This document shows, piece after piece, positions 7,817 through 20,475 of a DNA stretch of 64,000 nt (positions within the stretch are counted from its first letter, which is position 1; each line of letters begins with the position of its first letter). The position numbers and the translations under genes were made by a program. Source of the DNA: Candidatus Bathyarchaeia archaeon (lineage in GTDB: Archaea; Thermoproteota; Bathyarchaeia; 40CM-2-53-6); NCBI GenBank assembly GCA_050013255.1, contig JBEKFP010000001.1, forward strand, positions 704,001-768,000, written 5' to 3'. The notes under the pieces are model-generated. The model saw only the letters and a program-made list of their open reading frames with translations. It was not told the DNA's origin and did no database searches.

Positions 7817-7860
7817 TGTGCGCACCATTAGCCCCGCACACACTATCCTAACACAAACGA
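7817..7860 (+). repeat. Dispersed intergenic repeat, copy 1
   Basis: TGTGCGCACCA..CCCGCACACAC..CTAACACAAACGA resembles the reverse complement of 18910-18964 and 20426-20475. Confidence 0.5.
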
Positions 7861-10517: not shown

Positions 10518-11846
10518 CTAAGTCGTAGCCTCTGATGCAATCCGTGCATCAGTAGATGACGTAAGCTTTGCTGTACCTGAATGCGTTGTGAGAAATACGA
10601 TCTTGTCGGTACCATCGCGACGGCGCACAACGTGCTTCCTTGATTCCAACTTACCCAACAATCTGCTCATGGCCCATCCATCGACATCAAATTGGCTAAT
10701 GAGCTCACTTTGTTTTTGTGGACCGTTTTCCTGCAAATACATTATTACTTGGACGGCTAACGTCCTGAGTTCACTATGTTTTGGAAAGAGCCCATGGAAC
10801 TCCAATTCCATGTCTTCAGCCAATCTATCTAACGGAACTGACTTCTTGACAGTCTCCGTATCAATTTCCTGAGATCGGTCTGGCCTTTCCCAGAAATCCA
10901 AGGTTAGCTGAATATATCTGAGAAATCTTCTGAAGATCCCTCGACTCATGCGCGCAAGCGTGAGAAGCGCGTCCTCGGAGAACGGGTAAGTTGTCTCGAA
11001 TTCGAGCCGATAGGCGTCAACCATTTTTTCAGGATTCATGGGTCTGAGTTCAAACTGCCTCATCTTGTCCAGAAAATAGTGGTCTCGAAACATCTCCTTT
11101 TGGATAGCTACAACGATTGTTGCTGTGCTTCCTGCGCCAACGAGGTTGTTCCAAAACCAGTAAATGCCCTCGAAATCGCTATCCATCCGCCGTTTGTCTG
11201 TTTTCGAATAATCCGACGTGTCGATAAGAATGACGTGCGAGCTTAGAAGCGTCTTCAACCAAGTGTCACGTCGTAGCTTCTCAGTGGCAGCCTTCCCAAT
11301 CATCCTCTCCGCCCATAGTATGCCAGAAATCCCCTTTTCAATCTGCATCAGTCTGTCGACAACGTATCGTTGAACGCCTTCCTGGAACTCGAGGAACCTA
11401 TAGAAATCTGCCCCGTTCATCGTGTCGGAACAACTTTGAAGCTCCCCCAACAAAGCCGATAAGTATCGGGGAAGAAATTCGTCGGTCGCTTCATGAGTGA
11501 AGTTCAGAAGACTCGAAAAAAGTTCCTTCTCATTACGCCACTTGAAGATGACCCTCGACGAGTCCAATGAAAATGGTATGCCTGCAAAAAGCGCCTTAAG
11601 GGCGGTACTCTTCCCCACCCCTTGCTGCCCAACGAGACCAAACAACCCACGTCTACCCGAAGCGAATTCACGAGCCATGCTCTCCAGAACGTCGGGAACA
11701 ACGTAGGAATAACGAAGAGAATCTGGATCGCGAGTTTCACCGGCAAGCTGACTAGCCCAGTATCGAATTCTATCCACAGGAACGAGCTTCCTCAAATCGA
11801 CCGCCAAATTCCTCGGCGAACACTCAAGCACAGTCGAGAATATCAC
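10518..11846 (-). CDS. P-loop/AAA-type ATPase with C-terminal winged-helix domain
   Basis: Walker A GQQGVGKS, Walker B-like ILIDTSD, helical lid SRGIFRRF, C-terminal QSEL..AMSRLLGKLE..V.RR.DG wHTH. Confidence 0.75.
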   Translation of the reverse strand: MIFSTVLECSPRNLAVDLRKLVPVDRIRYWASQLAGETRDPDSLRYSYVVPDVLESMAREFASGRRGLFGLVGQQGVGKSTALKALFAGIPFSLDSSRVIFKWRNEKELFSSLLNFTHEATDEFLPRYLSALLGELQSCSDTMNGADFYRFLEFQEGVQRYVVDRLMQIEKGISGILWAERMIGKAATEKLRRDTWLKTLLSSHVILIDTSDYSKTDKRRMDSDFEGIYWFWNNLVGAGSTATIVVAIQKEMFRDHYFLDKMRQFELRPMNPEKMVDAYRLEFETTYPFSEDALLTLARMSRGIFRRFLRYIQLTLDFWERPDRSQEIDTETVKKSVPLDRLAEDMELEFHGLFPKHSELRTLAVQVIMYLQENGPQKQSELISQFDVDGWAMSRLLGKLESRKHVVRRRDGTDKIVFLTTHSGTAKLTSSTDARIASEATT

Positions 11847-12017: not shown

Positions 12018-12097
12018 GTAGGCTCGTAATTCAAGTACGCGAACCCGATCTTGCGAATACAAGAGATTGCCTGGTTCAAATTTGGCTGCCCGCACCA
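12018..12097 (+). pseudogene. Decayed tRNA-like sequence (insertion target)
   Basis: Residual cloverleaf: TCTTG/CAAGA stem, T-arm GCCTGG-TTCAAAT-TTGGC, acceptor 3' strand TGCCCGC plus ACCA; several mismatches, isotype not assignable. Confidence 0.5.
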
Positions 12098-12104
12098 CCA
12101 TACC
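12091..12104 (+). repeat. Left target-site duplication (14 bp)
   Basis: CGCACCACCATACC directly abuts the left TIR; 13/14 match to 17312-17325. Confidence 0.9.
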
Positions 12105-12178
12105 GGGGATATTACATAGGGCTCATTTTCTGATGGCCACGTGGAAAAGGCTTAGGGGACGTGGAAATCCACATGTAA
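12105..12178 (+). repeat. Left terminal inverted repeat
   Basis: GGGGATATTACATAGGGCTCATTTTCTGATGGCCACGTGGAAAAGGCTTAGGGGACGTGGAAATCCACATGTAA. Confidence 0.95.
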
Positions 12179-12204
12179 CCACGTTGTCAAGTTTGAGAAA
12201 CCAA

Positions 12205-12729
12205 TCAGATGCACGAGGGTTCGAGCAAGGGGGGCATAGTACCATAGAGTCCAGAAATGGCAACTGCGGTCAACCAGAGACAGTTTAGCGAATGCTGCTG
12301 AGAAAGAACTAACGCAGTTATTGACTTACCCATCCCGGCTTGCACAGCAGGGTCGCTTTTCGTTATCTTATCAAGATCGACGTGAACCCACATGTTACGG
12401 TAGTCAGTTCTGATCTTGTTCAACACACACGCTATCTGCGAAGTGATCACATTCTTAGAACCTGAGTAGCTGATTGACTCCTCCCACTTCATTCCTTTCG
12501 CTTTATTCTTGCCCATTCCATGATCTAGGCAATAGAATCTATGTGCAGGTTCCGCACAAGTTCCACTGACGATGGCCGCGGAAGCAAACATTCCACTAAA
12601 GTAAGCCTGAGTCACCTGGTCCCAGAGTTCATCTACAACGACATCAATTGATGGACCAAGCTTGAGGCCCTTGATGTTGGACTCCGCCTGGCTAGGGTTT
12701 ACCTGAGAAACGAGTTGTGTCGAATCCGT
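12205..12729 (-). CDS. DUF4145/HEPN-like protein, possibly with a damaged 5' end
   Basis: Frame open to 12729: ELWDQVTQAYFSGMFASAAIVSGTCAE ... LNKIRTDYRNMWVH (Rx4H); nearest ATG (12733) is out of frame. Confidence 0.55.
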   Translation of the reverse strand, partial: TDSTQLVSQVNPSQAESNIKGLKLGPSIDVVVDELWDQVTQAYFSGMFASAAIVSGTCAEPAHRFYCLDHGMGKNKAKGMKWEESISYSGSKNVITSQIACVLNKIRTDYRNMWVHVDLDKITKSDPAVQAGMGKSITALVLSQQHSLNCLWLTAVAISGLYGTMPPLLEPSCI

Positions 12730-12824
12730 TCATCTCGTCTTGTTAGAGAGCCAGCTACTTAATACTAGGCCGCGGGAAATTTCACGCGTCTGAAGCATTC
12801 CACAACGATAAAGGAGAAAGCGAT

Positions 12825-15800
12825 ATGGAGAGCAAAGAAATAGTTCCCAAGTCATATCATTTCACAGATCCAACTCAAGAATGGATCTACAAGAAACTGC
12901 TACTTCTAGTAGGCCCTGGTCCAGCCTTATTCTATCAAGATGCTTGTTCCATCATGGCAGAGTCTATTGCTCTTCAATCAACAACCCACTTAGTGGGGCA
13001 TCTCCTTCGCGAGATCGAGAGTGCGCTCCGGGATGTGTTGGAGCCGATAGTGGTACATATCACTCCTGCGCACGATAAAGACGAATCTGCCAAACACAAG
13101 GCCGAGATACTCGCAATTCTTAGCTACTTGGACATACCGGACTCTGATCCCATCGCAGTTGCGTGGATGAAGCTAGCCGGTAGAGGATCAGACTATGCTC
13201 TTCACGCGCGAGCCCATCGCAGAGATCTCTCAGCACCGCGTCCGATTGATCAGGACTTTGTTCGCTTTTGGGATGATACTCAGATGATCCTAAAAATTGT
13301 ACTCGACAAATTTGAGACGCATTATGCGTCCGTATTTGACATCCTAGACAAGACACTCGTTACGAGTAGTCCGAGTATTGCTGACATAAAACAACTCCGA
13401 GCGCATGTACCCAATAACATGGTCACATGGAGCTACTTTTTCGGCAGACTTCAAAGCACAAAATGGCTGAGTCAGCTGAAACTGGCAGGATTCTTTGATG
13501 CTCCGCCTGATCCTCAACTTGATGACGAAAAGAAAACGATCAGGATGATACTATGGCCTCAGTCACAATATTTGGCCAGGATAGCATCAGAGAGCCCAGT
13601 TGAGGTTGTTAAAATTATCCTCGATATACCAGAAACAGAGAATCTCTTTGTTCATTCTGACCTTGTTGACGCAGCTCTAGCGATGCCACCGGTCCTCGCA
13701 GCAGAATGGGCAAAGAAGGAAATAGACTGGATCGAGAAGCGCGATAGGATCAACTTCCTGTTACCACAGAAGCTAGGCGAGTTGATCGGACATCTGGCAA
13801 GAGGCAAACAAGCCGATGCAGCCCTTGAGCTAACCAGATCTTTGCTAGGCACATTCTCCTCGGAGGATGAGAGAAAAGGTATTTCTCCGTTGGAGCCACA
13901 AGCTCGACTTGATACATGGCATTACGCGCAAATCCTCCAGACGGCAGTTTTGGACCTTATAGCAGCAGCGGGAGAAAAAGCGCTCGTCCTGTTCTGCGAG
14001 CTCCTCGAATCGGCAATTCAGACGTATGTAAAAAGTAGCGGTCCTGAGGATTACTCCTATCTGTGGAGGCCAGCGGTCGAAGACAGTGAACAGAACCTTC
14101 TCTCAGATCCGAAGGAATTGTTGGTGTCCGCTGTTCGCGATTCAGCATTTCAGATTATCAAAATGGACTTGATACGCCTGCCGGCGATTGTAGGTCAATT
14201 AGAGAAACGAAAATGGCTGATTTTCCAACGCATAGCTCTTCACCTATTGCGGACATTTCCATCTGGCTATGATACTCTGATCGCAGAGTGGCTCGCAGAT
14301 CAACTCAAGTTCGGTAACCTTGGCCTTTGGCATGAATACTCGCTACTTGCCCAAGATCATTTTGGTGACCTGTCCCTTGAGGACCAAGACAAGATCCTCA
14401 AATGGATTGGCGATGGCCCTGATGTCAAGAAATTCAATGCTATGGAAGGAAACCGCACAGGCAAGGCTCCATCTAAAGAAGAGATCGAGCATTATGTGAA
14501 GCGTTGGCGGTTGACATATTTAGCATCCATTCATAGTTCATTGCCAGAAAAGTGGATAACTCGTTACGATGAATTGAAGAAGGAGCTAGGCGAACCAGAA
14601 CATCCGGAATTCTTGATATACAGTGGTGGGGGTTTCGGCCCTACAAGTCCAAAGAACGCCCAAGAATTGCAGTTGATGAGTGCCGCGGAAATCGTGAGTT
14701 TTTTGAAGACTTGGCATCCTAATGGCGGATTTCTTGCATCTTCTCCAGAGGGCCTTGGACGTGTATTGTCTGGAATTGTGTCTTCAAATCCAGCCCGTTT
14801 CGCGGAGGTAACTAACCTATTCCGAGAGATTGAACCAACCTACGTTCGGGCTTTACTCACAGGTCTCCGTGAAGCGGTTAAGCAGAAGCATTCCTTTGCT
14901 TGGGCTACAATTCTTGAGCTTTGCCAATGGGTAATGGAACAACCTCGCACCATTACGGATCGAAAGGATAATTTCGAGTCCGACATGGGTTGGGTATGGA
15001 CGAGGAAGACTATCGCCGATCTGCTCTCCGCAGGTTTTGAAACTGGTCCCGGCGAGCTACCATATGATCTTCGGAACAAAGCGTGGAACGTGCTTGAGCG
15101 GATTACTGAAGACCCTGATCCCACTCCGGAACAAGAAAAGGCGAACTATGATACTCCGAATATGAATCCTTCTGAACTATCCATAAACTCAGTTCGCGGA
15201 GAAGCAATTCATGCGGTTGTACGCTACGCACTTTGGGTGAGACTACATCTGGAAAAGGAAACAGATAGCGAGCAACGTGTTGCACACGGATTTGATGAAA
15301 TGCCTGAAGCACGAGCAGTTCTAGACGCGCATCTCGATCCCGCGCGCGAATCTGCTTTAGCAATAAGGGCCATTTATGGGCAATGGTTCCCATGGTTGCT
15401 TCTACTCGATAAACGGTGGGCCTTTTCCAAGGTTTCCTCGATTTTTACACATGAGGCCAATCTCCGAGATTTCCATGATGTTGCGTGGGAGGCGTACCTT
15501 GTCTATTGTCCTCCATACAACAACGTCGTGGATGTGCTTCATGAAGAATATGCGGAAGCCGTAGAGCGGCTTGGCGAGGCTGTATCCAAATGGCGCTACA
15601 TCGGTGCCGACCCGAGGGAACGGTTAGCAGAACACCTAATGATACTATACTGGCGCGGAAAGTTAAACCTGACAGACGTCATTCTACGACGCTTCTTTGA
15701 AAGAGCCTCCGATAACACGCGCGGTCATGCCTTGTCCTTCGTTGGACGAGAGCTATCCAACGTCAAAGAGGAAATTCAAACTTCAACACTCGAAAGGCTG

Positions 15801-16229
15801 ATGATGTTATGGGAACACAGACTTGAAACCTCTGAGTTGTCGAAAACAGGATCAATCAAAGTAAGGGAACTGGCGGCTTTCGGTTGGTGGTTCGCCTCGA
15901 ACAAGTTCGATAACAAATGGGCACTGACCCAGTTATCGGCAATTCTAATGCGTGTAGATCAAGTGGAAGCTGAACATCAGGTCATCAAGCGCTTGGCATA
16001 TCTCGTTCCAAAGTTTCCAGAGCAGGTGATCCAATGTCTTTCCCTAATGATCACAGAGAGCAAGGGATCCTTGCTCGTTCTTGCTTGGCGTGAGCAGGTG
16101 CGTTTAATTCTTGGCGCTGGCGCCAATAGTGAAAATCCCAAAGCACGTGAGAACGCTGTAATTCTGATCAATCGACTAACTGCGCTTGGACATTTGGAGT
16201 TCCGGGACTTGATAAACAAGACTAGCTGA
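12825..16229 (+). CDS. 1134-aa protein: N-terminal HEPN-like putative nuclease plus long alpha-helical, Trp-rich region
   Basis: Long ORF with AAGGAG upstream; HLLREIESALR..LHARAHR N-terminus; no P-loop seen. Confidence 0.7.
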   Translation: MESKEIVPKSYHFTDPTQEWIYKKLLLLVGPGPALFYQDACSIMAESIALQSTTHLVGHLLREIESALRDVLEPIVVHITPAHDKDESAKHKAEILAILSYLDIPDSDPIAVAWMKLAGRGSDYALHARAHRRDLSAPRPIDQDFVRFWDDTQMILKIVLDKFETHYASVFDILDKTLVTSSPSIADIKQLRAHVPNNMVTWSYFFGRLQSTKWLSQLKLAGFFDAPPDPQLDDEKKTIRMILWPQSQYLARIASESPVEVVKIILDIPETENLFVHSDLVDAALAMPPVLAAEWAKKEIDWIEKRDRINFLLPQKLGELIGHLARGKQADAALELTRSLLGTFSSEDERKGISPLEPQARLDTWHYAQILQTAVLDLIAAAGEKALVLFCELLESAIQTYVKSSGPEDYSYLWRPAVEDSEQNLLSDPKELLVSAVRDSAFQIIKMDLIRLPAIVGQLEKRKWLIFQRIALHLLRTFPSGYDTLIAEWLADQLKFGNLGLWHEYSLLAQDHFGDLSLEDQDKILKWIGDGPDVKKFNAMEGNRTGKAPSKEEIEHYVKRWRLTYLASIHSSLPEKWITRYDELKKELGEPEHPEFLIYSGGGFGPTSPKNAQELQLMSAAEIVSFLKTWHPNGGFLASSPEGLGRVLSGIVSSNPARFAEVTNLFREIEPTYVRALLTGLREAVKQKHSFAWATILELCQWVMEQPRTITDRKDNFESDMGWVWTRKTIADLLSAGFETGPGELPYDLRNKAWNVLERITEDPDPTPEQEKANYDTPNMNPSELSINSVRGEAIHAVVRYALWVRLHLEKETDSEQRVAHGFDEMPEARAVLDAHLDPARESALAIRAIYGQWFPWLLLLDKRWAFSKVSSIFTHEANLRDFHDVAWEAYLVYCPPYNNVVDVLHEEYAEAVERLGEAVSKWRYIGADPRERLAEHLMILYWRGKLNLTDVILRRFFERASDNTRGHALSFVGRELSNVKEEIQTSTLERLMMLWEHRLETSELSKTGSIKVRELAAFGWWFASNKFDNKWALTQLSAILMRVDQVEAEHQVIKRLAYLVPKFPEQVIQCLSLMITESKGSLLVLAWREQVRLILGAGANSENPKARENAVILINRLTALGHLEFRDLINKTS

Positions 16230-16234
16230 AGCCT

Positions 16235-17083
16235 ATGAAGACAGGTTATTACTATTTCGCGATAGAACCGCTGGTTGAAAAATATGAAGATGTGCCAGAA
16301 GTAAAACCGCTGATCTCAGTACCTGTTAAGACGAGGTCGAAAACATTCGAAGTCTCATTCTTTGCCTTGGGCAACCAACTGCACATGCTTAGGGTTGCAG
16401 TTCCGGACCTGGTCGAGGATAGGATTTCAGAAGATGACGCAAAGGTTGTTCAGACCCTAAAGGAACATGCTCTCTCAGTGTTACGCATAACGTACGACCA
16501 TGGTGTCAGTATGTTTCCAATCCATTGGTGGAGCTTCGCTGAGGAAGGAAAGGAATACAGAGCGAGCATTTCGATACGGGAGCAAATACAGGAAACATTC
16601 CGCATCAATGCGAGAAACATACGGAACGTTTTCGTGAGTACCTTTCCGCTGAGATATCAGATTACGCTCATATCGGATTCGCAGGATAGGAGAGTCCCAC
16701 TACAGTATCGATACCTGTCACTTTACAAGATACTCGAACTCGAGTTCAAGGTAGGTGGCAAATGGAATCGAATGGCTCTCAACGAATTCTTGTCTAGATT
16801 TGAGAAGGAGTTCCACAAACTTCACGACGAGAAATGCATGCTGGGGAATTATGTGCATCGCTTGCGAGACAAATGTGCTCACTTCAAGACTGGAAAGGGC
16901 ATTATTGGCGTTACTCAGCTAAGGGGCAAAGATACCGAAGAGGTTACCAAATTCCTACCATTTATGACAGACATGTGCTCAACCCTTCTAAACGAGAAAT
17001 ACCAAGACAAAGGATTCTCTATCGTAAAAGCACAACAGTATTCCGAGTTCTTAGCGAGAGGGCAGGACGTACCCATTAACTAA
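16235..17083 (+). CDS. HEPN-domain protein (ApeA/MauJ-like)
   Basis: YRYLSLYKILE helix and RDKCAH (Rx4H); 5 nt after the preceding stop. Confidence 0.65.
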   Translation: MKTGYYYFAIEPLVEKYEDVPEVKPLISVPVKTRSKTFEVSFFALGNQLHMLRVAVPDLVEDRISEDDAKVVQTLKEHALSVLRITYDHGVSMFPIHWWSFAEEGKEYRASISIREQIQETFRINARNIRNVFVSTFPLRYQITLISDSQDRRVPLQYRYLSLYKILELEFKVGGKWNRMALNEFLSRFEKEFHKLHDEKCMLGNYVHRLRDKCAHFKTGKGIIGVTQLRGKDTEEVTKFLPFMTDMCSTLLNEKYQDKGFSIVKAQQYSEFLARGQDVPIN

Positions 17084-17237
17084 ACTTGCCAACCACGTGG
17101 TCATAGTCGGGATCTAGCGTTGCTGTAGATTTCCAGAGACCTTCCATTTCGAACTCTCTCTTTGAGATACCAGAATGTATTCCTCTGAGAAAGAATTTCC
17201 ACATTTGATCTCTCTCACTCCGGGTGCGGGTCGATCC

Positions 17238-17311
17238 TTACACGTGGATTTCCACGTCCCCTAAGCCTTTTCCACGTGGCCATCAGAAAATGAGCCCTAT
17301 GTAATATCCCC
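17238..17311 (-). repeat. Right terminal inverted repeat
   Basis: Reverse complement of 12105-12178 with one mismatch. Confidence 0.95.
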
Positions 17312-17325
17312 TGCACCACCATACC
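17312..17325 (+). repeat. Right target-site duplication
   Basis: TGCACCACCATACC directly abuts the right TIR. Confidence 0.9.
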
Positions 17326-17440
17326 CATCTCCTCGCTTCGCTCGCCCTTGCTACGCTCTACCACTCGCTCCCAACCCCTCTCCCTCCCACACGTAGACAA
17401 AATCATGAAATCACACACTCAGGAAATAGCACACAAAGGC

Positions 17441-18244
17441 CTACGAACCATTGTCCAATTCGCTTTCGTAATCTCTGTAACCGGCACGTCTCTCGTCAAG
17501 TCGTTCCTTCAGTCTGTGCCGCGAGCGCCACTTGACATACGACTTGTCAATCCATCTGCGCGAGGCTTTGGGGAGTCCAGCTGCCAACTCCCTGTGGCTA
17601 AGGGCATTCATCGGCAACCACCAACTTGCTCCACTTCTCCCAACCAAACCATCCACAACACTTTCGGCTGCGCTGGCAAACCAATCTAAGGTGTGGATTC
17701 TAAGAAACGTCCTATACTGATAGGCCAATTGCCGCAGCTTCTTTTGTGCCATTGATGATAATTCATTTCGGCGCCCCATGAACAACAATCCGAACGGGTG
17801 CTCTATACCAGGCATCAGCTCTTCTGCATACTCCCTGTGGTCGTCAACCCAAGTATGCCAGTTTCTTATTTGACCGATAGCATGTGTCAAACGAGCGGAC
17901 GGATCGCCTTCCCTATTGAAAAGGTGGAAATGCGGAGGTTCAATCTCTGCCAACGACCATTCAAGACCAAGGCTGCCTGCGTCAAACCAAACAAAATCAA
18001 TCTCGTAATCGCTCCCAAGTCTCACTTTCGAATAGAGCGGAGAAGCGCCGCCTAAGCGAATGAATCCGTTGAAGAAGTAGCTATGAGAAGCCAAGAATGA
18101 GTGAATACTTTGCTCGCTTGCATTCGAGTCCAAAAGCTTGATGTACCTTTTGATGTCTTCCTTCACTTTCTGTCCAGTTAGCGCTCGCACTTTTGGATCG
18201 ATGGTTTCATCGTCTGTATCCGTCATGATGTCCTCGGTCGACAA
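17441..18244 (-). CDS. Shedu/DUF4263-type anti-phage nuclease domain protein
   Basis: EQSIHSFL..KVRLGSDYEIDF..EIE.P...LF....PSARLTHAIGQI..W..LFMGRR..IHTLD pattern. Confidence 0.75.
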   Translation of the reverse strand: MSTEDIMTDTDDETIDPKVRALTGQKVKEDIKRYIKLLDSNASEQSIHSFLASHSYFFNGFIRLGGASPLYSKVRLGSDYEIDFVWFDAGSLGLEWSLAEIEPPHFHLFNREGDPSARLTHAIGQIRNWHTWVDDHREYAEELMPGIEHPFGLLFMGRRNELSSMAQKKLRQLAYQYRTFLRIHTLDWFASAAESVVDGLVGRSGASWWLPMNALSHRELAAGLPKASRRWIDKSYVKWRSRHRLKERLDERRAGYRDYESELDNGS

Positions 18245-18909: not shown

Positions 18910-18964
18910 TCGTTTGTGTCGTTAGAAAGCGTGTTGTTGTGGGTAGGCTGGTGTGCACACACAC
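18910..18964 (-). repeat. Dispersed intergenic repeat, copy 2 (inverted)
   Basis: TCGTTTGTGTCGTTAGAAAGCGTGTTGTTGTGGGTAGGCTGGTGTGCACACACAC. Confidence 0.6.
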
Positions 18965-19027: not shown

Positions 19028-20410
19028 GTGAGAATTGAGCCGCGACTTGAGTTACTGATACTGATTGCTGTTTTCTTTCTCATCCTTGTGCCTAATGTAC
19101 GCGCTTTCACTTTCGAGCCTCAAGTAGGCGTTTGGGGGGACGATTCCTCAAGAGGAAATATGGGAGTGTCTGTCGAGATTCGAACCCATATCTACCCTAC
19201 GAATCCGGGGGACTTCCAGTATTTCTGGGTTGGTGATAACCTGAACAATGGTGCGTTCATTCAGTTCGGCTACATTTACGAGCCGGGATATTATTGCTTG
19301 AATGGCCAGACGGTTGGCGGGAAGTTCACATGTCTAGGTGATTCCGATCACATTGGAGGGTCGGATGCGCGTTGGGAATGGCAGTATTGGCCCAATAGTA
19401 ATGTTAATGACTTCTCTTATGGAAAAGGACCAGCAAACTCGGCCGGACTTGATGGGACATGGCACAAGTATTCAATTGAGCCGAACACTAGAGGAGGTTG
19501 GAGTTTCGTACTTGATGGTCGAGAGGTCTCGTACGTTACAAATGTGTGGACCCGATCCAAGGACGCAGCGTATTTTGTGGCGGAGAAGGGCAGCAATACG
19601 TACGCAACGCTTGGCCGATTAGGGCCAGTCGAATTTAGAAACCTAGCGTACCTCAAAGACGATGGCTGGCACTATGCAACAACGCTGTCTGCGCTGGTAG
19701 GGTGCGCTGTAAACACAAATTGCAACATCAATATCCCCTACGGCGTAATGTCGGAGGGCGCAGGTATTGTGATCGCAGGGAGCGGGATTCAGCGACCGAG
19801 CGACCTCGATTTGTTATGGACTGGGGTTGTTGGTGGCGTGACGTTGACTCTTGATCTGCCGAATAATGTTACTGTCAGAATAGATGACCAGTTTATGCGA
19901 TCTGGTTATTCTCAGCTGTCTCTTTCACGAGGACCGCATACGATCGAGGTACCTCAAGATTCCGCCATCGATTCGAATAACAGGCTTAGGTTCGACCATT
20001 GGAGTGATGGGTCAGTTTCTTTGAATCGGACGTTTACGTTAAACTCTGACACAACACTCAAGGCAATCTATGTTACGCAACACTGGCTAACTATCAATTC
20101 AGTTGTGCCCATGAACGGTTCAGCGTGGTATGACGAAGAATCAACCGTATCTTTCTCGAAACCGACTTCAATCCTGATTCATGCTGACCTCGGAATCCTA
20201 GGTGGTCAGTGGACATTTGACGGATGGTACGAGGACGGAGTCTATTTAACGAGTTCAACCAGCAGTTCCATTGTTATGGATAGACCGCACACTTTGCAAC
20301 TTCACTGGCATCAGAATTACGCAATTCCCCTTGCGATTGTGGCACTTCTGGCTCTGGTGGGTTTTGTTACGGCCTTGGTAGTCAAAAGAAGACGTGAGAA
20401 GTCAGAATAG
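19028..20410 (+). CDS. Secreted, C-terminally anchored protein; possible G1/neprosin-like peptidase domain plus beta-repeat stalk
   Basis: Signal peptide; FWVG..FIQFG and FVAEK motifs; FDHWSDG/FDGW repeats; TM plus KRRR. Confidence 0.6.
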   Translation: MRIEPRLELLILIAVFFLILVPNVRAFTFEPQVGVWGDDSSRGNMGVSVEIRTHIYPTNPGDFQYFWVGDNLNNGAFIQFGYIYEPGYYCLNGQTVGGKFTCLGDSDHIGGSDARWEWQYWPNSNVNDFSYGKGPANSAGLDGTWHKYSIEPNTRGGWSFVLDGREVSYVTNVWTRSKDAAYFVAEKGSNTYATLGRLGPVEFRNLAYLKDDGWHYATTLSALVGCAVNTNCNINIPYGVMSEGAGIVIAGSGIQRPSDLDLLWTGVVGGVTLTLDLPNNVTVRIDDQFMRSGYSQLSLSRGPHTIEVPQDSAIDSNNRLRFDHWSDGSVSLNRTFTLNSDTTLKAIYVTQHWLTINSVVPMNGSAWYDEESTVSFSKPTSILIHADLGILGGQWTFDGWYEDGVYLTSSTSSSIVMDRPHTLQLHWHQNYAIPLAIVALLALVGFVTALVVKRRREKSE

Positions 20411-20425: not shown

Positions 20426-20475
20426 GTGTGTGTGTGCGCACCACTGATACCACAACAACACTTTCGCTCGCAACG
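20426..20475 (+). repeat. Dispersed intergenic repeat, copy 3
   Basis: GTGTGTGTGTGCGCACCACTGATACCACAACAACACTTTCGCTCGCAACG, inverted relative to copy 2. Confidence 0.6.

Follow-up and report, generated by a model that had tools for sequence, protein, structure and literature searches.

Casposons are rare mobile elements that are defined by the presence of both Cas1 and PolB, and they have been proposed as the ancestors of CRISPR spacer acquisition. They commonly, but not obligatorily, insert at the 3' ends of tRNA genes. Non-autonomous derivatives are known in most transposon groups, which tempers surprise at the element that we describe here. This 5,207-bp element lies in the genome of a Bathyarchaeia archaeon from peat (assembly GCA_050013255.1), within a 64-kb stretch of contig JBEKFP010000001.1 (positions 704,001 to 768,000) that we refer to as the window. 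The element has casposon-like ends and three cargo genes, and it encodes no casposase (the Cas1 homologue of casposons). It very probably descends, as a non-autonomous derivative, from a family-2-type lineage of casposons in wetland Bathyarchaeia.

The closest described systems are the family 2 casposons, and we compared the element to AciBoo-C1 from Aciduliprofundum boonei, to MetMaz-C1 and MetMaz1FA1A3-C2 from Methanosarcina mazei (casposase PDB 6OPM), and to NitNCS1-C1. The A. boonei casposase reads the sequence TCAAATC, which ends 8 bp before the 14-nt target site duplication (TSD), as well as TCCCC at the 3' end of the terminal inverted repeat (TIR) (PMC6614799). In M. mazei, the TSDs have a consensus start of 5'-CGCA (PMC6977970, PMC4779613) and the TIR starts with GGGATAT (PMC10359463). 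A thaumarchaeal casposon carries HEPN cargo (PMC6563490). Two kinds of incomplete casposons have also been described: solo TIRs and inactivated tandem casposons in Methanosarcina (PMC4779613), and engineered mini-casposons, which were integrated in vitro (PMC5137440) and moved in vivo (PMC10359463).

The element occupies window positions 12105-17311, with inverted repeats at both borders. As the first-pass annotation of this DNA had stated, a 5,207-bp segment is bounded by a pair of 74-nt TIRs (identical at 73 of 74 positions) and flanked by a 14-nt direct repeat (12091-12104 and 17312-17325). The two copies of the direct repeat match at 13 of 14 positions, with the first base differing; the chance of such a match at a fixed position is about 1.6e-7. 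No inverted repeat in the 64-kb window is longer than the TIRs. Relative to the consensus of the TIR family (described below), the mismatch in the TIRs and the mismatch in the TSDs are both transitions at CpG. The left TIR deviates from this consensus at position 69, and right junctions across the family almost always have C at the first base of the TSD, where this element has T. The landing site and the ends are as follows.

12073..12090, + strand: leader half of the landing site, a T-loop mimic (GGTTCAAAT) that includes TCAAATT at 12076-12082, with its end 8 bp ahead of the TSD
12091..12104, + strand: left TSD, 14 nt, starts with CGCACCA
12105..12178, + strand: left TIR, 74 nt, starts with GGGGATAT and has three ACGTG sub-repeats, at TIR positions 33, 53, and 65
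17238..17311, - strand: right TIR, 74 nt; the top strand of the element finishes with TCCCC-3'
17312..17325, + strand: right TSD, 14 nt, first base T, not C

Seven more assemblies from this population have the locus without a single base difference (their samples may be the source of this genome), so it is not an assembly artefact. The sequencing runs that contain the locus are peat or wetland metagenomes, and there are no RNA datasets among those listed. The element is single-copy in the host assembly, which has three contigs (C1-C3) and may be incomplete. (Below, G-numbers indicate genomes, with G000 being the host assembly, and L-numbers indicate the collected stretches that carry loci.) We considered the ACGTGGAAA repeats as origin-recognition boxes and rejected this idea: they are the sub-repeats of the TIR, and they occur at both ends and throughout the family. 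A scan for sigma-70 promoters was uninformative; the host is an archaeon.

The element resembles family 2 casposons at its ends and at its target. Both target motifs are present, with a TCAAAT leader at -15 (8 bp upstream) and a 14-nt TSD that starts with CGCA; the TIR starts with GGG(G)ATAT and has TCCCC at its 3' end; and the autonomous relative of the element, described below, has a Cas1 with a C-terminal extension, PolB, and HNH. Unlike family 2 casposons, the element itself has no cas1, polB, or HNH gene, its TIRs are 74 nt with three ACGTG sub-repeats instead of 31-37 nt, and its target is a dispersed mimic of a tRNA end instead of a tRNA gene. The element encodes no Cas1, PolB, transposase, or integrase, which bears out the initial description. 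Because cas1 and polB were tested for and are absent, the element is not a casposon by definition, even though it would behave as a substrate of a family 2 casposon. Like the Methanosarcina remnants (PMC4779613), which are Cas1-less or dead casposons, it lies by a CGCA target, and its host has two solo TIRs of the same family as its own. Unlike them, it could still serve as a substrate, since neither end has been lost and the TSD and intact cargo genes are also retained. The arrangement of TIR, cargo, and TIR without a casposase is that of the engineered mini-casposons (PMC5137440, PMC10359463), but those are laboratory constructs and this is a natural family. In the literature, with most subscription journals outside the search, we found no description of natural two-ended Cas1-less casposon derivatives, and we found no casposase work on Bathyarchaeia.

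The ends of the element are shared with autonomous elements that bear a casposase (L206+L263, L214, and L271). We searched metagenomes with a pattern from inside the TIR, without flanking sequence, which yielded 84 stretches. (A combined pattern of target plus TIR start, when run on genome contigs, gave mostly chance matches.) The TIR is also present in 12 of the 105 genomes of the order, and none was found in viral contigs. The target CGCACCA-N7 borders 82 of 83 distinct TIR ends (49 left, 29 right, and 4 ambiguous). The leader is at the expected place in 37 of the 49 left ends, and 7 come after the tip of another unit. Thus, the family inserts at a 14-nt target that starts with CGCACCA, behind a T-loop-like leader. 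Inside 92 ends we examined 365 proteins, among which we repeatedly encountered Cas1, HNH, PolB, the products of small core genes, the TATA-binding protein (TBP), and defense-like modules. Elements with other cargo and without Cas1, which the first-pass annotation had proposed to look for, do exist.

One member is a complete casposon on Ga0187784_10001700 (L206+L263), which is the autonomous element with both cas1 and polB that had been sought. It is 14,885 bp long, with two 74-nt TIRs and a TSD that matches at 14 of 14 positions, and its TIRs are identical to those of our element at 59 of 76 aligned columns. Its Cas1 (Pfam E = 2e-61) has the M. mazei casposase 6OPM as its best match in PDB (E = 1.4e-90), and the match spans the whole protein, C-terminal extension included. 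It also encodes an 866-amino-acid PolB, an HNH-like protein, and a HEAT-repeat protein. The same core lies beside the same TIR in L214, L271, and L185; PolB was identified in L263, L214, and L271. Thus, autonomous members of the family encode a casposase with a C-terminal extension, PolB, an HNH protein, and small conserved genes. That the same TIR family encloses a complete Cas1- and PolB-encoding casposon with a perfect 14-nt TSD upholds the casposon ancestry that had been proposed for the element. Two stretches in the casposase clade, L186 and L187, have no TIR in the fetched DNA, so the label "74-nt TIR" does not correspond strictly to one clade.

Six elements were recovered in full, each with its two ends and its TSD. 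They include the autonomous element and the one described here, and five of the six have no intact casposase. The G079 element (5,687 bp) has a C-terminal remnant of cas1, 230 bp inside its left TIR, that is 61% identical to the L263 casposase; by inspection of its sequence, its cargo looks like a peroxiredoxin, a metal regulator, and an ABC transporter. The L236 element (7,345 bp) retains a C-terminal remnant of PolB and has SIR2 and TPR cargo. Neither a cas1 nor a polB remnant is present in the L238 element (5,753 bp, with SIR2-like cargo) or in the L252 element (5,390 bp). Four relatives have a perfect 14/14 TSD. So in these relatives the core was lost in steps (a remnant of cas1, a remnant of polB, or nothing), while both ends and the cargo stay.

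The family is also mobile. Near-identical inner ends lie at different sites with different TSDs: L204 and L262 are 97% identical over 855 bp, and the TBP-bearing ends of L002 and L046 are 97% identical. In L311, a TIR with the cargo-3 gene of our element (80% identity) occupies a different site, where it is inverted relative to our copy and has a different TSD. Because the relocated copies are incomplete, movement without cas1 cannot be claimed for them. L236 and L252, which are related and Cas1-less, have in common a 3.6-kb module (87% identity) at different sites.

In the host itself, TIRs of the family are also found singly at C1:254421 and C2:744697, and both of these solo TIRs immediately follow a 14-nt target. 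We looked for their partners and found no TIR-preceded direct copy of either 14-mer within 120 kb. An Avs2-like gene of 1407 amino acids (G000:C1:250055-254421, L001) ends 70 bp from the first of these TIRs, and a homologue that is 70% identical lies within the same TIR family in L268. The second is one of seven loci at which a TBP gene is recurrent cargo beside the TIR (G000:C2:743967-744697, which is L002, along with L042, L046, L048, L050, L248, and L269). At the TBP loci, the DNA next to the TIR is 97% identical even though the species and the TSDs differ; this is a mobile basal transcription factor. In L201 (3299-9500), an operon for type I restriction-modification lies between the TIR and a truncated cas1. 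A further variant of the ends, which starts with GGGGATATAGGTAAG and is nearer to the M. mazei TIR, was seen in L198 (at 1343), L251 (at 233), L220, and L048 (at 14708). Ends of this type stand in tandem with the 74-nt family at common target sites.

The first-pass annotation had placed the insertion at a tRNA-like 3' end. The target does mimic the 3' end of a tRNA, but it is not a tRNA gene: ARAGORN and Rfam identified none, and the folding z-score is -0.27. Only the T-loop and the acceptor end are resembled, and the site is laid out as the T-loop mimic, 8 nt, and then CGCACCA plus 7 nt. About 100 such mimics are dispersed across the genome (101 sites, versus 3-4 in shuffled sequences), and a few of those counted are real tRNA ends. 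A paralogous site at G000:C2:279795, with one 14-mer and with the same downstream flank as the element, illustrates what an unoccupied site is like; it is not the empty allele of the element's locus.

Several other features of these sites may be of interest. The right flank of the element (17326-17420) is itself a repeat, as it is also found behind the landing sites at C2:279795 and C3:226079; at the latter, it adjoins a paralogue of cargo 2 in an inverted arrangement, and it is possibly the end of another type of unit. The 14-mer of the left TSD recurs in the same orientation at G000:C1:770468, which is 49 kb downstream (2.5 kb past the end of the window). There it stands behind a GC-rich tip of the type found in the C3 casposon (see below), which could be due to chance or to a larger nested unit. 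The window contains more landing-site or tip motifs at 7821, 18931-18964, and 20428-20461, and two inverted copies flank the gene at 19028-20410. Finally, L053:13664-13745 (G054:C140) has two left-type junctions with the same 14-mer, 80 bp apart and facing away from each other, which makes an inverted double landing site.

The element has three cargo genes, one of which (cargo 3) had been overlooked in the first-pass annotation.

12205..12723, - strand: cargo 3, a small DUF4145/HEPN-like gene with an RNxxxH motif and a faint match to Pfam DUF4145 (E = 0.096)
12825..16229, + strand: cargo 1, 1134 amino acids, with an N-terminal HEPN-fold domain (about amino acids 27-166) and a Dsr1-like helical body (amino acids 184-1078)
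16235..17083, + strand: cargo 2, 282 amino acids, of the MauJ family, with a C-terminal HEPN fold and an invariant R211-x4-H216

All three are probably anti-virus genes, a prediction that draws on the biology of HEPN domains, on fold and profile matches, and on the neighboring genes. Cargo 1 matches the PADLOC profile for Dsr1 (defense-associated sirtuin 1) with E = 1.6e-53, over profile positions 305-1175 only, and it has no SIR2 domain. Its NCBIfam score for Dsr1 is 23.6, far below the cut-off of 1400, so it is not Dsr1. Instead, it combines a Dsr1-like helical body with a HEPN-fold domain that stands in place of the SIR2 NADase, which makes it a candidate defense architecture. The structural model of the N-terminal domain has a pLDDT of 91.5, and its best VIA-align matches are HEPN toxins (SO_3166, with Z = 9.4 and a root-mean-square deviation of 3.2 over 123 aligned residues, and also RnlA and LsoA). 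Foldseek found no match for the N-terminus, and no relative of the protein by sequence was found in PDB. The residues H55, R62, and A130-H131-R132 are invariant. Cargo 1 has 171 homologues, mostly full-length and unnamed. One of these (55% identical) is just inside a TIR of the same family (L297), and another (L299) is among cassettes with other ends.

Cargo 2 matches Pfam's MauJ with E = 9.9e-7, and the columns for R211-x4-H216 are invariant in 54 sequences. Its top fold matches are mostly from the HEPN family (best Z = 7.7); in the literature, we found no relevant paper on a connection between MauJ and HEPN. A paralogue that is 85% identical is at C3:225075, outside any TIR of this family. 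Homologues of cargo 3 are 77-83% identical. The TTG start codon of a homologue corresponds to TCG in our element, so that the open frame begins at the GTG at 12615, which leaves 136 of 172 amino acids. The first-pass annotation proposed that immunity genes had replaced the core of the element. The fold and profile evidence does point to defense-like cargo, but because the autonomous parent also carries variable cargo, it is better to say that the core was lost and that the cargo was kept. Two further genes lie outside the element. To its left, an ATPase of AAA-like type with a C-terminal MarR-type winged helix is encoded at 10518-11846 (- strand), and just beyond the right TSD, at 17441-18244 (- strand), is a gene with the Shedu nuclease domain SduA_C (Pfam E = 6.6e-12, PADLOC E = 6e-24).

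Several observations weigh against our interpretation. No remnant of the casposon core was found inside the element, so its descent rests on its ends and its target. The 866-amino-acid PolB has weak matches to both PolB profiles (E = 2e-5), although weak matches are to be expected when casposon PolBs are divergent. In cargo 1, the HEPN motif departs from the canonical form, with no arginine 4-6 residues ahead of the histidine, and the Z-scores of 7-9 for the HEPN matches are middling values where helical bundles are compared. Lastly, an empty allele of the site with a single 14-mer, which the first-pass annotation had hoped for, was not found: contigs from four runs contain no joint that bypasses the element, and the element's flanks are not conserved across 22 genomes of the genus. 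Contigs lose rare variants, so this is not proof that the empty allele is absent.

Could the ends belong to some other kind of mobile element? If they were the ends of an insertion sequence or DDE transposon, or of a tyrosine recombinase, then the casposon-like start would be a coincidence. A broken DDE gene does lie 400 bp inside a TIR, in L185 only, and a fragment of an integrase lies inside one TIR (L048). However, L185 also has cas1, a HEAT gene, HNH, and part of a PolB; transposases and integrases are not recurrent among the 365 proteins; and 82 of 83 ends have the fixed 14-nt TSD with the target motifs of a casposase. We consider this explanation to be largely refuted and very unlikely indeed. 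Two of the three refuting conditions named in the first-pass annotation, a transposase bounded by the same TIR and the lack of a casposase-bearing element with these ends, thus do not refute it. It is also improbable, if less so, that the element was moved by the host's own PolB-less casposases (C3:231179 and C1:1333417), which use the same target motif and would have to accept these ends as well. Both are full length and retain the catalytic E, H, and E motifs, a perfect 14-nt TSD of this type flanks the C3 element, and the A. boonei enzyme requires just five terminal bases. Yet they are only 42-46% identical to the cognate enzymes, a branch with 100/100 support separates them from the TIR-associated clade, and trees that join either of them to that clade are rejected (p-AU = 3e-4 and 8e-52). 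Furthermore, the tips of the C3 element, and those of a close relative of it in G004, are CGCCCC/CCGCC instead of GGGGA. In other words, there are two casposase clades that have one target in common and whose ends differ. (The C3 element, G000:C3:228078-239057, is a casposon without PolB that carries cas1, HNH, and TIR-domain genes.) No cognate-clade casposase was found in the host assembly, and a PolB of the casposon type was found neither there nor in the element.

Given that the element derives from a casposon of the 74-nt TIR family, its core might have been lost after insertion or before it, and we view these as about even. In the former case, an autonomous casposon inserted and cas1 and polB were later removed by internal deletion, so that what remains is a domesticated defense island that has never moved in its Cas1-less form. 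We give this close to an even chance. It would account for an element that is single-copy and fixed in every assembly seen, for a host assembly without a cognate casposase, and for the TSD mismatch and the lost start codon; there are also the two solo TIRs elsewhere in the host, the partial remnants in G079 and L236, and the precedent of solo-TIR decay in M. mazei (PMC4779613). On the other hand, no trace of core genes remains in the element, many independent clean deletions would be needed if five of six complete elements are without an intact casposase, and Cas1-less L236 and L252 have a common module at different sites. In the latter case, the Cas1-less unit was inserted as such by a cognate casposase acting in trans, and the helper casposon was transient or has since been lost. 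We consider this quite possible, at somewhat less than an even chance. In vivo, a mini-casposon engineered to lack Cas1 was mobile in wild-type M. mazei (PMC10359463), which shows that movement in trans is feasible, and near-identical ends are found at different sites with different TSDs (L204/L262, L002/L046, and L311). But there is no relocated pair with both copies complete, and the helper is absent from the host assembly. The first-pass annotation had favored mobilization in trans; with a single copy, no cognate casposase in the host assembly, and no empty allele found, our data do not establish it. Nor do the near-identical TIRs indicate a recent insertion, as had been suggested. Within the family, the two TIRs of an element have between 1 and 15 differences, also where the TSD is perfect (10 in the autonomous element), so TIR identity does not date the insertion, and the element's TSD and one start codon have already changed.

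Based on the biochemistry of casposases, insertion of a casposon-derived element like this one would begin with the casposase reading the leader and the first bases of the TSD. The two TCCCC 3' ends would be joined to positions 14 nt apart, and gap repair would then create the TSD. The element would have arisen by stepwise loss of the core, as in its relatives. With no cognate-clade casposase in the host assembly, the element is probably now an orphan, and renewed movement would require that the cognate enzyme be supplied. It would be kept because its cargo would act as RNase toxins of the abortive-infection type, with the Dsr1-like body of cargo 1 as the putative sensor of phage.

MITEs (miniature inverted-repeat transposable elements), minimal cassettes, and defense-laden pipolins (PMC11551731) have likewise kept their ends, lost their enzyme, and carried defense cargo. 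Unlike in those systems, the enzyme here is a Cas1 homologue and the targeting is sequence-specific. What this analysis adds is the separate family of ends, its PolB-bearing parent, and the deletion series. These also provide matched reagents, namely the L263 or L214 enzyme, the 74-nt end, a defined target, and natural substrates of 5-7 kb, with which it could be asked if PolB is needed for casposition and if cargo is moved in trans by casposases. As a possible tool, an integrase that is site-specific and has natural cargo of multiple kilobases may also be of interest. More tentatively, wetland Bathyarchaeia may have a casposase-driven cargo network, in which at least two clades of casposases, with ends that differ, use one dispersed 14-nt site that mimics tRNA. 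In this network, 74-nt-ended units without Cas1 or PolB would be moved in trans between sites and species, and they would deliver defense modules (the new HEPN-Dsr1-like system, SIR2-TPR, Avs2-like, and type I restriction-modification) and genes for host functions (TBP and metal transport). In any case, the natural series that begins with a complete casposon, passes through partial remnants, and finishes with enzyme-less, two-ended cargo units shows that a genetic unit can persist by its ends alone.

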